Source: Candidatus Micrarchaeum sp. | Lineage (GTDB): Archaea; Micrarchaeota; Micrarchaeia; CABMEP01 | NCBI GenBank assembly: GCA_020723065.1 | Contig: DYJP01000002.1 | Span: forward strand, 7,464-71,463 | Reading direction: 5' to 3' | Length of the DNA stretch: 64,000 nucleotides | Shown here: positions 22,430 to 59,721 of the stretch, piece after piece | Layout: each line of letters opens with the position of its first letter | Numbering within the stretch: the first letter of the stretch is position 1 | Notes under the pieces: model-generated | The model's input: only the letters and a program-made list of their open reading frames with translations | The model's database searches: none | Told to the model about the DNA's origin: nothing | Program-made: the position numbers and the translations under genes

Positions 22430-23419
22430 TCATTTTATTTTTGAAAAATCTATAATTCTATTCTTTTTCGCTTTTTCATCTCTGCAAAGGAGAACGATTC
22501 TTGAAGGCTTGTGCTCATCAGTATATATGTAACCTGTCTCTTTTGCCAATTTCTTTGCGAACTCAACGATTTCATCATGCAAAGGCATTCCTAAAGGACC
22601 GATTCTATTTCTTGAGAATCCCAAGGCCATATACGCCTTTACCTCCACATAATCTGGATTGCCCATCTTTATAAGTTCAGCATACTTTTCTGGATGGGCC
22701 ATATTACTGTCCTTGATAATGGTCATGCGTATAACTGTTCGTGTAAACTTGCCCGCCTCCTTAAGCAATTTAAGTGAAGCGAGATACCTTTCCCAGCCAT
22801 CGGGAGAATTCGGCCTTACAATCAAATTGAAGCTTTCCTTATCGTAAGAAGACATCGAAAGATAAAGTTGGGTTGGAAGTGTTTTATTATTTATCAGATT
22901 CTCTATTGCACTTGGCGATCCACCAGCAGTCACGATAAATGTACTCATTCCCCTCTTATGGAACGCTTTGAGAAGCTCCGGCATTTTGGGATAAACGATT
23001 GGTTCTCCGAGAACGCTCAATGCCACGTGCTTCGGATCCTGTGCTTCAATCCAGAGCTTCTTGTCCGCATGCGGGTGTCCTCCTAAGCCGGAAAGAAGCT
23101 TTCTCTGCGCCAAGATCATCTCTTCGATTATCTCTTCCGGATCATCCCATTTATCAATTTTAATTGAATCCATATCAACTTCGATCTCTCCTGGCTGCGC
23201 TCTCCAGCAGAAAACGCATTTGTTAAAGCAGAACGGAACGACCGTGCATTGGAGACATCTATTACTCTTTATACCGTAAAACTGGTTTTTGTAGCACCAA
23301 GAACCCTTAATTATCGAATCTTTGGTATATTGGCAAATCTTGACCAATGAATGTTGGTTCTTTCCAGCGAACCGGTACTTCTGTTTTTTCAAAACAGCTG
23401 CAAGCTTATCCGGAATCAT
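22430..23419 (-). CDS. taw1: Radical SAM enzyme, tRNA 4-demethylwyosine synthase (Taw1/TYW1-like)
   Basis: CFNKCVFCWR radical-SAM cluster motif, plus an upstream Cys-containing region (KICQYTKDS...GSWCYK) typical of Taw1. Confidence 0.65.
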   Translation of the reverse strand: MIPDKLAAVLKKQKYRFAGKNQHSLVKICQYTKDSIIKGSWCYKNQFYGIKSNRCLQCTVVPFCFNKCVFCWRAQPGEIEVDMDSIKIDKWDDPEEIIEEMILAQRKLLSGLGGHPHADKKLWIEAQDPKHVALSVLGEPIVYPKMPELLKAFHKRGMSTFIVTAGGSPSAIENLINNKTLPTQLYLSMSSYDKESFNLIVRPNSPDGWERYLASLKLLKEAGKFTRTVIRMTIIKDSNMAHPEKYAELIKMGNPDYVEVKAYMALGFSRNRIGPLGMPLHDEIVEFAKKLAKETGYIYTDEHKPSRIVLLCRDEKAKKNRIIDFSKIK

Positions 23420-23503: not shown

Positions 23504-24655
23504 ATGCCTATAACCATTCTTTTGGAAAAGAACAAACTCAAGGTAAGAAACCAACAGGATTACGAAGCGCTAAGAAGGGCTTTCTACGGAGAGAAGCGCG
23601 GACCCGAAATAGAGCTCACTGTAGAGGAAGCCCTCTATCTGATGGAAGTTCGAAATGCTATTTGCCTAGATGGAGAGCGATCCGTCACATTCAGTGAACT
23701 GGTGCAAAAATTCAACAAACCGAAACTGTTCGCAGAATACATCACATTCAGGGACTGGAGAGAAAGGGGACTCATGGTAAGACCTTTCTCAGACTCGAAA
23801 GGAAACTACAACAAGAATCCGACAGTCAAGTATCCGTTCAAGAAAACAAAATTCAATAAGGTGAATGCCAGCGGATTGTTCTTCAAAGAAGATAAGATGA
23901 CGATCCTGGAAGATGAAGAGACAGGAAAAATCCTGTATCAAAGTCATTGGTTCGGCCAGTACGGATCCTACAAGGCGGAAGGAAGGGGAAGGTTCCTAAA
24001 ACTTGACAAGTTCGAGACGATGTTCCTTGTGAAAAACTGTGGAATGGAGCTCATGAACTGCACGGAAGCAGAGCTCGACGCCAACCTGAATGAGGATCCT
24101 GATTTTCTGTCGATGTATCAAGTTTATGAAGATTGGAGAAATGCTGGATTCATAGTAAAAACAGGATTCAAATTCGGAACGCACTTCAGAATATATTTCC
24201 CAGGCGCATTGCCTGGAAAGAGCAAGGATTGGACCCATTCAAAGCACGTCCTCCACATATTCCCAAGGGAGAAGAGAATGGTAATAGCTGAATGGGCGAG
24301 AGCGATCAGGGTGGCTCACGGAGTCAGGAAGACGTTCATACTCGCCATACCTGGAAAGAAAAAAAAGGAAAAGAATAAATCCATAGTCAGTTTCATATTA
24401 TACCATAGGAAAGGAAACGCCATAGAGACCCCGGACAAAGACGGACCTTCTTTCGCCATGGTTTCATTGAGCGAAGAGGAAATGATCGGAGGAAACGAGC
24501 TTGCAATAGCGATCGAAGAATCCAAGAACCACGGGCTAGATGTTGTCCTGGGTATAGTTGATAGAGAGACTTCTGTCACTTATTACAGGGTAAAAAGAAT
24601 CGACTTGCCGGAAAGCAAGTACGAATATTACGAAATAGAATGGATACAGCCATGA
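23504..24655 (+). CDS. endA: tRNA-splicing endonuclease EndA, three-unit architecture
   Basis: Central catalytic motif GFKFGTHFRIYFPG...WTHSKHVLHI (Tyr/His/Lys triad region). It is preceded by an N-terminal EndA-like domain and followed by a ~130-aa extra C-terminal unit. Confidence 0.75.
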   Translation: MPITILLEKNKLKVRNQQDYEALRRAFYGEKRGPEIELTVEEALYLMEVRNAICLDGERSVTFSELVQKFNKPKLFAEYITFRDWRERGLMVRPFSDSKGNYNKNPTVKYPFKKTKFNKVNASGLFFKEDKMTILEDEETGKILYQSHWFGQYGSYKAEGRGRFLKLDKFETMFLVKNCGMELMNCTEAELDANLNEDPDFLSMYQVYEDWRNAGFIVKTGFKFGTHFRIYFPGALPGKSKDWTHSKHVLHIFPREKRMVIAEWARAIRVAHGVRKTFILAIPGKKKKEKNKSIVSFILYHRKGNAIETPDKDGPSFAMVSLSEEEMIGGNELAIAIEESKNHGLDVVLGIVDRETSVTYYRVKRIDLPESKYEYYEIEWIQP

Positions 24656-33055: not shown

Positions 33056-33787
33056 ATGATAATTATGACAAAAATCGTTGAAGTCTCGCCAATAAAACTG
33101 AAGAATCCGGTGCTAATTGAAGGTTTCCCTGGAGTGGGGATGATTGGCACAATAGCCGCCATGCATCTAATAAAGGAATGGAACATGGAACTGGTAGGAT
33201 ACATAGACTCTGAAGAGTTCCCGCCAATATGCACGATCCATGACGAGGAACCATTACCTGCGGCAAGAATATACCAATCCAAGAGATACAACACGCTCGT
33301 TCTTTTCTCTGAATTCGTAATACCAACCGATGCAGTCAACAAGGTAGCAAACGAGATCATCCTTTGGGGAGAAGACAGAAAGCTTAGCGCAATAATATCG
33401 CTTGGAGGTGTCGGCCTTTCAACAATAAAAGACGACGTATTCGGAATCGCATCGACAGACGGACTGAAAAAAGAGCTCAAAGACATCGGAATCACTGTGG
33501 TAAAAGAGGGAGTCACTACCGGAGTGACCGGACTAGTCCTCGCAAACGCATACATTAGGAAATTTCCCGCGGCAGCAATACTTACTTCTAACAAAAACAT
33601 GAACATCAACTTAATAGGAGCAGCAAAAGTGCTTGAAAAGCTCAGCGACCTGCTAAATATACCTATAAGCACCGACAAATTGCAGAAAGAAGGAGAAGAG
33701 CTTGAGAACAAACTAAAGAAAATGATAAAGGAAACCAAAGAAGTAAGGAAGACTTATGAAGACATACAGTCTCCGATGTACAGATAG
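33056..33787 (+). CDS. PAC2-family proteasome assembly chaperone-like protein
   Basis: N-terminal IEGFPGVGMIGTIA motif and a length typical of archaeal PAC2 (COG1938). Confidence 0.55.
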   Translation: MIIMTKIVEVSPIKLKNPVLIEGFPGVGMIGTIAAMHLIKEWNMELVGYIDSEEFPPICTIHDEEPLPAARIYQSKRYNTLVLFSEFVIPTDAVNKVANEIILWGEDRKLSAIISLGGVGLSTIKDDVFGIASTDGLKKELKDIGITVVKEGVTTGVTGLVLANAYIRKFPAAAILTSNKNMNINLIGAAKVLEKLSDLLNIPISTDKLQKEGEELENKLKKMIKETKEVRKTYEDIQSPMYR

Positions 33788-33819
33788 GATTATATTATTC
33801 GTTTGCTTATTCTTACTAT

Positions 33820-33925
33820 GCAGGGGTGCCAGAGCCAGGTCAAACGGGTCAGATTCAGTATTGAAGACCAAGCTTAGGACCTGATGCGCGTAGGCGCTGC
33901 GTGGGTTCAAATCCCACCTCCTGCA
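33820..33925 (+). tRNA. tRNA-Leu (anticodon TAG), class II with long variable arm and a candidate 19-nt intron at non-canonical position 30/31
   Basis: Acceptor stem GCAGGGG/CUCCUGC with discriminator A. T-arm GUGGG-UUCAAAU-CCCAC. Variable-arm hairpin GCGC-GUAG-GCGC. Removing 33853-33871 restores a perfect anticodon arm UCAGG-CUUAGGA-CCUGA. The D-arm pairing could not be resolved by eye. Confidence 0.55.
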
Positions 33926-34103
33926 TTTTATTTTTATTCGATTAGACGATGAAATAAGATATAATAAATAGTAAGAGACAACTAAACTCTTAGTGAAAAA
34001 CGGGATTTTCCTTTTACTTAGATTGCATCTAAAAAAAATAGTACTGACTTAAACTTAAAGAAAATTAAAGATGTTTTGAAAAGATATAGGAAAGAATTGA
34101 GTT

Positions 34104-35253: not shown

Positions 35254-35868
35254 TCATTTCTTTTCTAAAGAATCAACTGTCTTGCAAAAAACAAGATAAG
35301 CTGTATGCATGAGACCGATATTCTGGGGCCTTGTGCCACGCTCCCTACTCATGATTTCTCTCACTATCGCCTCTAAAATGAAACAATCGTATCCCTTTTC
35401 TTTTGCAATCTTTGCAAACAGGGCAACCTGCTCCATGTGGGGGAGATATGCGATTATATATCCGTCTTCTGAAAGTTTGAACTTTGAATTGAATATATTT
35501 TCCGGATTTGGAAGATCTAAATTGATGATGTCAATCTCTCCTTCAATTTTTTCGATGCCTTCAAAAACCGACTCGTTTGACAAAAATATGTTATTTAGCC
35601 CGGAGCGCTTTATGTTCTTTTCTGCAATACCATAGAACTCTTCACGATTTTCAAAAGAATACACTTTCTTAGCAATTGAACCAAAAAAAACATTAGAAAA
35701 ACCGCTTCCCGCTCCAGCGTCAACCACTACGCTCTTTTTATTCATGCCCGAAAATGCAACAATCGTGCCCAGATCCTTTGGAAGAATTACTTGCGGGCCT
35801 CTTTTAAGCTTCTTAAGAATTGGAGGAAACCTGAAATCAAACCCCTGGTGCCTTGAACTTCTTACCAT
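35254..35868 (-). CDS. trmI: tRNA (adenine-N1)-methyltransferase TrmI/Gcd14-like SAM methyltransferase
   Basis: PQVILPKD resembles the TrmI motif (QIIYPKD). SAM motif I VVDAGAGSGF. The start is trimmed to MVRSSR (ATG 35866-35868); the track start is 35919. Confidence 0.55.
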   Translation of the reverse strand: MVRSSRHQGFDFRFPPILKKLKRGPQVILPKDLGTIVAFSGMNKKSVVVDAGAGSGFSNVFFGSIAKKVYSFENREEFYGIAEKNIKRSGLNNIFLSNESVFEGIEKIEGEIDIINLDLPNPENIFNSKFKLSEDGYIIAYLPHMEQVALFAKIAKEKGYDCFILEAIVREIMSRERGTRPQNIGLMHTAYLVFCKTVDSLEKK

Positions 35869-35923
35869 AGAATAAATATAAAGAGAATATTTTAATGCCT
35901 TTAGTGTAATATAATACATCTAG

Positions 35924-35995
35924 GCCCCAGTAGCTCAGTGGTAGATCGCGTCCTTGGTAAGGACGAGGCCACGGGTTCGAATCCCGTCTGGGGCT
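35924..35995 (+). tRNA. tRNA-Thr (anticodon GGT)
   Basis: Acceptor GCCCCAG/CUGGGGC. Anticodon arm CGUCC-UUGGUAA-GGACG. T-arm ACGGG-UUCGAAU-CCCGU. There is one C:U mismatch in the D-stem (GCUC/GAUC). Confidence 0.8.
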
Positions 35996-36002
35996 TGCTT
36001 AA

Positions 36003-41833: not shown

Positions 41834-43042
41834 ATGAAACTTGATGATTTGAACTATTTATCGAAATTGCAAGGTTGCGGCGGCCGAAGGGGCGAGAAAC
41901 CAGAAGATTTCAACGTAGAAGAGATAATCGATGGCAAAAGAGTGTCTATGCTGAAGAGGCCCGAAGGAAACGGGCTTAAGGAGTACATCTATTTTGTTTT
42001 AACCAAGAAAGGAATCACTACGGAAGACGCGTTGACCGCGATTGCCAAAGAATTGAAAATAGGTCGCGAACGCCTGAATGTTGCAGGACAGAAGGACAAA
42101 AATGCGATAACGACCCAGCTCGTTTCTTGCTGGAGTGGAGTAACGGGCGGAAAAAACGTGGAGATTTCCCCTTCCAAAATTGTCAATGTCAAAAATTTAA
42201 AGGACATAAGTATCCATAATCCATTTTATTCAAGTGAAAAACTCAAAATTGGTGATTTAACGGGAAATGCGTTCAAAATACGCTTAACTGGAGTGAGAAA
42301 AAAAGAGCAGATAGAAAAAATAATCAAGGATAATAATAGTATGGTTCCGAATTATTTCGGACCGCAGAGATTCGGCATGAAACAAAACAATGCCACGGTC
42401 GCAAGATACATCCTTCTTAAACAGTACAGAAATGCGGTTTACGCCTTCCTGGCGGAAAATGAGAAAGAATTTTTAGAACTTAATGAAAATGGAATAAGTG
42501 AAGAATACCTGTCGGGTCTTAGAAAGGGAAGCTATGAATGGCTCGTTGGAAGGCACCTTCTCGACCACGAAGGAGAATATCTTTCTGCGATCAAGAAAAT
42601 ACCTAGGACTGTAAAAAAACTCATAGTCCAATCCTATCAGTCCTACCTATTCAACTTGGAACTTAGCGAACGAATAAGGAGAAATCAGCTCTCTCCATTG
42701 GAAGGTGAAAAAACCTGCGGTTTCAATAAATACGGTTTCATAGATCCTGAAGCCACTGGAAGTGCGGTTACGGTCGGAAAAATAATTGGCTATAACACAA
42801 AGGCAAATGAGATAACTTCAAACATACTTTGGAACGAAGGAGTAGAACTTGGAGATTTCAAATTCAGGGACCTACCGGAGTTGGCAAGCGAGGGTTTCGA
42901 ACGCCCGCTCTTGATAAATGTTAAGGATTTAAAGGTTGAGAGAGAAACTAAAAGCAAAACGGTCTTAATCTTTTTTGAACTTCCAAAAGGCGGATATGCC
43001 ACTAGCGTTTTACGGGAAATTACCGCACTGAAAAGACAGTGA
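41834..43042 (+). CDS. truD: tRNA pseudouridine(13) synthase TruD/Pus7 family
   Basis: NYFGPQRFG motif with catalytic Asp context. Confidence 0.75.
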   Translation: MKLDDLNYLSKLQGCGGRRGEKPEDFNVEEIIDGKRVSMLKRPEGNGLKEYIYFVLTKKGITTEDALTAIAKELKIGRERLNVAGQKDKNAITTQLVSCWSGVTGGKNVEISPSKIVNVKNLKDISIHNPFYSSEKLKIGDLTGNAFKIRLTGVRKKEQIEKIIKDNNSMVPNYFGPQRFGMKQNNATVARYILLKQYRNAVYAFLAENEKEFLELNENGISEEYLSGLRKGSYEWLVGRHLLDHEGEYLSAIKKIPRTVKKLIVQSYQSYLFNLELSERIRRNQLSPLEGEKTCGFNKYGFIDPEATGSAVTVGKIIGYNTKANEITSNILWNEGVELGDFKFRDLPELASEGFERPLLINVKDLKVERETKSKTVLIFFELPKGGYATSVLREITALKRQ

Positions 43043-57467: not shown

Positions 57468-57555
57468 CTTAACTTAATTTCTTTTTTATTTTTTCTTTAT
57501 TTTTCTCATTTTTGATTTTTATATATTTAATTAATATTGGTCTGTATCTAATTAG

Positions 57556-57628
57556 TGGGGTCGCTGAGATTTGAACTCAGATCAACAGCTCCCAAAGCTG
57601 TCAGCATACCAGGTTAGCCCACGACCCC
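57556..57628 (-). tRNA. tRNA-Pro (anticodon TGG)
   Basis: Acceptor GGGGUCG/CGACCCC with discriminator A. Anticodon arm ACAGC-UUUGGGA-GCUGU. T-arm CUGAG-UUCAAAU-CUCAG. CCA is not encoded. Confidence 0.8.
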
Positions 57629-59610: not shown

Positions 59611-59721
59611 GCTCCAATCGTCTAGCCCGGTCAAGGACGTAGCCCTTTCAGAAACTTTTGAAAAGTTTCATCAAAAGTCTAAAGAAAGGCTAAAACTCGG
59701 GTTCAAATCCCGATTGGAGCA
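59611..59721 (+). tRNA. tRNA-Glu (anticodon TTC) with a 36-nt canonical-position intron
   Basis: Acceptor GCUCCAA/UUGGAGC with discriminator A. D-arm GUC-UAGCCCGGUCAAG-GAC. Anticodon stem UAGCC/GGCUA enclosing the loop CUUUCA plus intron 59651-59686, which contains a GAAACUUUU/AAAAGUUUC hairpin. T-arm UCGGG-UUCAAAU-CCCGA. Confidence 0.7.

Follow-up and report, generated by a model that had tools for sequence, protein, structure and literature searches.

A predicted 19-nt bulge-helix-bulge intron at position 30/31 of a tRNA-Leu(UAG) gene from an uncultured Micrarchaeota lineage

Archaeal tRNA genes are known to carry non-canonical introns bounded by a bulge-helix-bulge structure (BHB), and 30/31 is explicitly among the recorded positions (PMC4090602). 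Introns of this type are particularly abundant in Crenarchaeota and Nanoarchaeota (PMC4090602). In the BHB of a canonical intron, the central helix takes up the first two anticodon bases and cleavage occurs in the bulges (PMC4090602), which means that each cut falls between bulge nucleotides 2 and 3. Position 30/31 is also where the split tRNA-Lys(CUU) genes of Nanoarchaeum equitans and Staphylothermus are broken (PMC4090602).

The closest described organism is ARMAN-2 (Ca. Micrarchaeum acidiphilum). The introns given for it in the portion of the source considered here are at 59/60 of pre-tRNA-Cys(GCA) and at 53/54 and 59/60 of pre-tRNA-Pro(GGG) (PMC3239211). In vitro, its epsilon2 splicing endonuclease (EndA) cuts introns with a strict or a relaxed BHB, including a non-canonical one (PMC3239211). 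K161 of this enzyme is needed for cleavage, and grafting of its specificity loop confers broad specificity (PMC3488258). Moreover, the tRNA-Pro of ARMAN-2 has weak D-stems, with a single Watson-Crick pair in the D-arm (PMC3239211).

The window analysed here is the whole stretch of 64,000 nucleotides (64 kb). Its G+C content is ~40%, and the archaeal LSU rRNA that it includes identifies it as archaeal. Positions 33820-33925 very probably represent a functional Micrarchaeota tRNA-Leu(UAG) gene with a 19-nt BHB intron at 30/31, which interrupts the anticodon stem on its 5' strand.

The interrupted tRNA-Leu(UAG) gene

The gene lies on the forward strand and is 106 nt long. The Rfam tRNA model (RF00005) matched exactly 33820-33925 with 31.4 bits (gathering score: 29) and a 24-nt insertion. 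The gene reads exon 1 GCAGGGGUGCCAGAGCCAGGUCAAACGGGUCAG, intron AUUCAGUAUUGAAGACCAA and exon 2 GCUUAGGACCUGAUGCGCGUAGGCGCUGCGUGGGUUCAAAUCCCACCUCCUGCA. Exon 1 (33820..33852, +), delimited by the Rfam match and the alignment to intron-less orthologues, comprises tRNA positions 1-30, with the 5' strand of the acceptor stem, the D-arm, G26 and U27 C28 A29 G30. Exon 2 (33872..33925, +), delimited by sequence, Rfam and orthologue alignment, comprises positions 31-73, with the anticodon UAG (33875-33877), the long variable arm, the T-arm, the 3' strand of the acceptor stem and A73. CCA is not encoded.

The 7-bp acceptor stem GCAGGGG/CUCCUGC, the T-arm GUGGG-UUCAAAU-CCCAC and the variable-arm hairpin GCGC-GUAG-GCGC could all be read in the sequence, just as the initial annotation had described them for a gene of 106 nt. 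Together with U8, A14, G18-G19 and A73, they characterise a class II tRNA-Leu in the sequence itself, in the Rfam alignment and in the alignment of Leu orthologues. After excision of the intron, the 7-nt anticodon loop is C32-U33-U34-A35-G36-G37-A38. This presents a leucine anticodon, and the loop is the same in the intron-less orthologues.

A TATA-like box (TTATATTA; 33790..33797, +) was read from the sequence; relative to tRNA position 1, its centre lies ~26-27 nt upstream. A similar A/T box occurs at equal distance upstream in two related loci, L081 and L083. An oligo-T tract (TTTTATTTTTATT; 33926..33938, +) follows immediately 3' of A73. The two elements may serve as promoter and, likely, as transcription stop, respectively.

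The intron (33853..33871, +) corresponds to a single gap against the intron-less orthologues. The RNAfold MFE structure of the 106-nt precursor contained the helix GGUC(28-31)/GACC(47-50), the bulge AGA(32-34) and the hairpin UUCA-GUAU-UGAA (gene-index numbering). A scan for BHB geometry added the second bulge AAG(51-53), so that the intron extends over gene-index 34-52, which is window 33853-33871. In window coordinates, all on the forward strand, the central helix has its 5' strand (GGUC, tRNA positions 25-28; BHB scan and RNAfold MFE) at 33847..33850. The 5' bulge A G / A is at 33851..33853 and predicts a cut at 33852/33853 (MFE fold and BHB scan, with the register checked on a tRNA-Glu intron and consistent with PMC4090602). 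The inner helix h', UUCA/UGAA with the loop GUAU (MFE fold and BHB scan), occupies 33854..33865. The intronic 3' strand GACC at 33866..33869 and the 3' bulge A A / G at 33870..33872, with a predicted cut at 33871/33872, were obtained from the BHB scan.

The 4-bp central helix GGUC/GACC thus stands between two 3-nt bulges, AGA and AAG. The inner helix is 4 bp long, and the outer helix h is G24-C32 alone, followed by a C.U mismatch. As folded, the motif is of a relaxed, HBh'-like form on its 3' side as opposed to the strict hBHBh' form. Since the outer helix offers only one G-C pair and a mismatch, the intron would depend on a broad-specificity enzyme. The predicted cuts produce the anticodon arm UCAGG-CUUAGGA-CCUGA. 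With three extra D-loop nucleotides taken into account, the break falls at 30/31.

The initial annotation had stated that a canonical anticodon arm requires the removal of 33853-33871, and excision of this segment indeed gives UCAGG-CUUAGGA-CCUGA with the anticodon UAG. Because UCAG is duplicated, it had also allowed an ambiguity of up to 4 nt in the position of the junction. This ambiguity disappeared: among all single deletions, only one (start 34, length 19) yields the product, and the BHB fixes the cuts. BHB folding of the exon-intron junctions, which had been proposed as a check, returned a motif whose predicted cuts fall exactly at the proposed sites. When the intron was shuffled with its junctions fixed, a 4-bp central helix together with an inner helix of ≥3 bp in register was found in 0.08% of 200,000 shuffles.

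No similarity was seen between the intron and either the tRNA-Glu intron in the window or a recurrent 'UUCAYSAAA' intron element (see the following section). A scan of the metagenome collection with the 16-mer AACGGGTCAGATTCAG gave chance matches only, with 0 in a tRNA context; the pattern is too short for this collection.

The D-stem of the window gene has the pairs C10-G25, C11-G24, A12.C23 and G13.A22. Only the first two are Watson-Crick pairs, where a regular D-stem has 3-4. C10-G25 and C11-G24 were invariant across 13 aligned sequences, and pair 13:22 was G.A in most of them. In more distant relatives, pair 12:23 was a Watson-Crick pair (U-A, A-U or G-C); the window clade had A.C, and a sister clade had C.A. 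The difficulty in fitting the D-arm, which had been noted before, is real. The suspicion of a mis-parse or a second irregularity was not borne out, as the register matches that of the relatives. By the alignment, the odd D-arm is a trait of the lineage and not a second intron. The D-stem mismatch lowers the regularity of the mature tRNA but not its identity as tRNA-Leu.

The A/C mismatch at 12:23 (window 33831/33845) is kept in both orientations, as A.C in the window clade and as C.A in L001-L006 and L204-L206. An A+.C wobble, a base modification or editing at this pair would be speculation only. A tRNA-Pro(UGG) gene elsewhere in the window (57555-57628, -) also has non-standard D-stem pairs in the Rfam alignment, which recalls the D-arm of ARMAN-2 tRNA-Pro.

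Related loci and other tRNA features

A PAC2-family proteasome-assembly chaperone is encoded just upstream of the tRNA-Leu(UAG) gene, at 33056-33787. Its homologues were found almost entirely in metagenome-assembled genomes of Candidatus Micrarchaeota/Micrarchaeia, which places the host in this phylum of DPANN archaea. PAC2 homologues with their flanks provided 80 Micrarchaeota loci for comparison, and look-ups with the window proteins P0002, P0003, P0004, P0013, P0015 and P0020 provided eight more, while the window's PAC2 ORF and P0001 matched no record exactly. The placement of a tRNA-Leu gene directly 3' of PAC2 is conserved in the Micrarchaeota loci.

Eleven syntenic tRNA-Leu(UAG) genes beside PAC2 were intron-less (L001-L008, L204-L208), with the loop CUUAGGA and with PAC2 56–81% identical. 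In a MAFFT alignment of the window gene with the intron-less genes of L001, L005, L007 and L008, there was one gap, and it coincided with the 19-nt intron. The intron-less L001 gene scored 50.5 bits in Rfam, versus 31.4–31.8 bits for the interrupted genes.

The closer relative L082 was identical to the window. In L081 and L083 (PAC2 87% identical in both), introns were found at the same 30/31 site: AUUCAGAAAUGAAGGCUAA with 19 nt in L081, and AUUCAGUUUCAUACUGAAGGCUAA with 24 nt and a 5-bp inner helix in L083. In the central helix, the intron strand read GACC in the window and GGCU in L081 and L083, and all four pairs were kept via G.U and U.G. The hairpin loops (GUAU, GAAA and UUUCAUA) and the length of the inner helix differed, and the conserved part was the BHB geometry only. 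The central helix of L081 and L083, with two G.U pairs, was absent from the MFE fold.

A 16–18-nt BHB intron at 30/31 was also present in the syntenic tRNA-Leu(UAA) of L014, L015, L018, L019, L020, L033 and L043, a distant clade; L043 comes from the complete genome of Ca. Fermentimicrarchaeum limneticum. The BHB of this clade has the helix GGCA/UGCC (exon GGCA, 3' strand UGCC or UGUC), the bulges GG/U and AA/A and an outer helix of 3 bp. Thermodynamics favour an alternative, continuous 6-bp helix over this BHB.

In nine intron-bearing sequences the central helix was 100% paired; two of its pairs had changed in both bases (compensatory) and two in one base (wobble-type). For the inner helix, 96.9% of the cells were paired, and three of the four pairs had changed on both sides. 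The anticodon stem of the mature tRNA, which extends across the intron, was 100% paired in 13 sequences, with compensatory changes in four of its five pairs. These counts rest on two clades and three close relatives. Because the independent lineages are few, the covariation is supportive of the predicted helices but not statistically strong.

The window clade (PAC2 identity of at least 87%) carried the 30/31 intron, and every sampled relative with PAC2 at 56–81% identity lacked it. It recurred at the identical site in the tRNA-Leu(UAA) of the distant clade. A recent, lineage-specific gain, or a recurrent, site-specific gain if the insertions were independent, can be proposed only tentatively, and we consider it rather doubtful.

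Rfam at the gathering threshold gave no match in 35 'empty' relative loci. This was a false negative, as inspection by eye and regular expression revealed multi-intron tRNA-Leu genes in several of them. The tRNA-Leu genes of L016, L046, L055, L058, L061, L066 and L068 were missed both by ARAGORN -i and by Rfam at the gathering threshold. Downstream of the PAC2 match, T-loop introns occurred in L016, L046, L061, L066 and L068, and D-loop and T-loop introns occurred together in L055. The L058 gene contained three introns, including one of ~127 nt at 30/31, and may represent a third lineage with an intron at this site. Its 30/31 BHB is weak (three of four helix pairs, without an inner helix) and was left out of the evidence.

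The window holds further tRNA features. A tRNA-Glu(UUC) gene (59611-59721, +) has a canonical 37/38 intron of 36 nt at 59651-59686. Rfam found this gene at 49.6 bits, and ARAGORN -i mislabelled it 'tRNA-Stop(tta)'. The BHB of the tRNA-Glu intron consists of the helix CUUU/AAAG and the bulges CA/G and AA/A, and its cut register is the same as in the tRNA-Leu intron. The same enzyme presumably serves both, while the tRNA-Glu intron differs in its length of 36 nt and its place in the anticodon loop.

A recurrent element, GAA(A/C)C-UUUU...AAAAG-(U/C)UUCA(U/C)(C/G)AAAA, occurred six times in 1.14 Mb, always in sense to a tRNA gene. The sites were window 59651-59686, L008 at ~3924 and ~5966, L029 at ~4769, L066 at ~3867 and L068 at ~4261. 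The settings were 37/38 introns (Glu, Leu), T-loop introns (Leu) and one 3' trailer. The element was also in an intron of the gene upstream of a tRNA-Thr-like anticodon arm in L008. It looks like one intron family at different tRNA positions. Two genes for tRNA-modifying enzymes were found as well: a GCD14/TrmI-type m1A58 methyltransferase (35254-35919, -), which adjoins tRNA-Thr(GGU) (35923-35996), and TruD, the pseudouridine-13 synthase (41834-43042, +).

Splicing endonuclease, proposed processing and rival readings

An ORF of 383 aa at 23504-24655 (+), ~10 kb from the tRNA-Leu(UAG) gene in the same window, encodes a three-unit epsilon2-type tRNA splicing endonuclease, as shown by its Pfam and PDB matches. 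The ORF has the Pfam domains tRNA_int_endo (5.5e-27) and tRNA_int_endo_N (1.1e-10) and matched ARMAN-2 EndA (PDB 4fz2_A) over its full length (E=1.4e-122). Y231, H245 and K276 align with the ARMAN-2 catalytic triad Y236, H251 and K282, and the loop residue K157 aligns with the specificity-loop lysine K161. The ORF was first located by tblastn with an M. jannaschii EndA sequence, which served as a lead only. We infer that this endonuclease acts on the tRNA-Leu(UAG) precursor. A Taw1-like radical-SAM wyosine enzyme (22430-23419, -) adjoins the EndA gene.

Archaeal tRNA exons are joined by an RtcB-type ligase. None was identified among the ten larger window ORFs that were scanned with Pfam.

The following course of processing is proposed. 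Transcription would begin from the TATA-like box and end at the oligo-T tract. In the precursor, G25 G26 U27 C28 pair with the intronic GACC to form the 4-bp central helix, as sequence, folding and covariation indicate. This helix is flanked by the bulges AG/A and AA/G and by the intron hairpin UUCA-GUAU-UGAA. The BHB uses G25-C28 as well as G24, and hence C10-G25 and C11-G24 cannot coexist with it. The two D-stem G-C pairs would thus be open in the cleavage-competent form, and the D-stem would form only after splicing. The epsilon2-type endonuclease would cut both bulges, in line with the biochemistry of ARMAN-2, and an RtcB-type ligase would join G30 to G31. The spliced junction would read ...GGGUCAG-GCUUAGGA..., with the 19-nt insert gone. 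The anticodon stem UCAGG/CCUGA and the D-stem would then form, and CCA would be added. The expected product is an 87-nt class II tRNA-Leu decoding CUA and CUG.

ARAGORN gave a different picture of the locus. Default ARAGORN missed the gene in the window. Intron-aware ARAGORN (-i), which the initial annotation had named as a check, returned tRNA-Pro (agg) i(35,21) at 33819-33926, that is, a tRNA-Pro(AGG) with a 21-nt anticodon-loop intron (33853-33873), the stem GUCAG/CUGAU and the loop UUAGGAC. A tRNA-Pro(AGG) with A34 would have precedents in other ARMAN lineages (PMC3239211). However, its 3' cut would lie 2 nt past the AAG bulge, in paired or unstructured sequence, and there is no BHB at that place. 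The class II long variable arm, the Leu-type D-loop and A73 do not fit proline, and all intron-less syntenic orthologues read C32-U33-UAG-G37-A38. ARAGORN likewise shifted the Leu(UAA) genes by one base, resulting in 'Leu(AAG)'. When every segment of the gene was deleted in turn, 256 different artificial deletions were taken as tRNAs. Hence, the ARAGORN call is not discriminating and cannot fix the junction, which was set by the BHB register and the orthologue alignment instead. The check did yield another anticodon, but this model is contradicted by the BHB, the variable arm and the orthologue loop, and a tRNA-Pro(AGG) is highly improbable. The Pro(AGG) and Leu(AAG) artefacts are the same two A34 species that were reported for ARMAN-4/5 in PMC3239211.

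If the gene is instead read as tRNA-Leu, it might be a decaying pseudogene, disabled by the 19-nt insertion and the D-stem mismatch, with the real tRNA-Leu(UAG) elsewhere. The Rfam score barely over the threshold (31.4 vs 29), the A12.C23 mismatch and the clean intron-less gene in the sister clade would agree with decay, and the gene count is limited to the 64-kb window. Yet three diverged genomes have kept the insertion at one and the same site, with BHB pairing preserved by all changes. In all other respects the conservation of the exons is complete and takes in U8, A14, G18-G19, the T-loop and A73. A promoter-like box and an oligo-T tract have also been kept, and the gene stands where the intron-less tRNA-Leu(UAG) stands in the conserved synteny. 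Intron-less genes of the sister clade likewise have an A/C mismatch at 12:23, with the two bases swapped, and a pseudogene is unlikely on these grounds. Retention of the 19 nt, as part of a tRNA-like RNA with an expanded anticodon-arm hairpin or as a hairpin with a separate role, could draw on the stable hairpin that the extra segment forms in the MFE fold, and the splicing of the precursor is something we infer. But the segment has to be excised before there can be a 5-bp anticodon stem and a 7-nt loop that presents UAG. The hairpin loop and length vary freely while the BHB geometry alone is conserved, and the genome encodes the type of enzyme that removes such elements. We give retention very little credence. 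The reading as a functional tRNA-Leu(UAG) gene with a spliced intron is thus preferred. The tRNA-Leu(TAG) with a 19-nt intron at 30/31 proposed in the initial annotation is upheld by the agreement of the BHB, the syntenic orthologues, the conserved intron, the anticodon stem and the EndA gene in the window.

Significance and relation to known introns

The case is of modest interest and useful chiefly for annotation. ARAGORN either misses the gene or calls a spurious tRNA-Pro(AGG), and its Rfam score exceeds the gathering score by 2.4 bits. Its Leu(UAA) counterparts in L015 and L043 were missed by Rfam. As a consequence of such gene-finder failures, tRNA-Leu isoacceptors can seem to be missing from Micrarchaeota genomes, and non-existent A34 tRNAs can seem to be present.

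The clade with the intron and the sister clade without it lend themselves to a comparison of how the intron was gained or lost. If the insertions were independent, tRNA-Leu of Micrarchaeota would have gained an intron repeatedly and specifically at 30/31. If this is true, the before/after gene pair and the EndA in the window would make intron gain by reverse splicing or intron transposition directly testable. An in vitro test would be straightforward, since the substrate and the epsilon2-type endonuclease lie in one 64-kb window.

A literature search returned no paper describing a tRNA-Leu(UAG) 30/31 intron of this lineage; the ARMAN supplementary tRNA tables were outside the search. The intron is of a known kind, because 30/31 is already listed among archaeal intron sites. 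Non-canonical introns and the epsilon2 enzyme are already established for Micrarchaeota, and the case is ordinary for the phylum. What is new is that a 30/31 intron whose outer helix is relaxed occurs in the tRNA-Leu(UAG) of this uncultured lineage of Micrarchaeota. The finding extends 30/31 BHB introns to the tRNA-Leu of Micrarchaeota.

Like the known archaeal non-canonical introns, the window intron is short, has a 3-4-3 bulge-helix-bulge and lies outside 37/38. It differs from those in which Crenarchaeota and Nanoarchaeota are rich in its host, which belongs to the Micrarchaeota (DPANN), in the tRNA affected, tRNA-Leu(UAG), and in the outer helix of 1 bp. The split tRNA-Lys(CUU) genes are broken at the same position and are also processed via a BHB of the flanking sequences. 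They are, however, two genes joined in trans, whereas both exons of the window gene are within one 106-nt transcript unit. ARMAN-2 shares with the window the phylum, the three-unit type of endonuclease, non-canonical introns and weak D-stems. The ARMAN-2 introns described in the portion of the source considered are in the T-loop, while the window intron is at 30/31 of tRNA-Leu.
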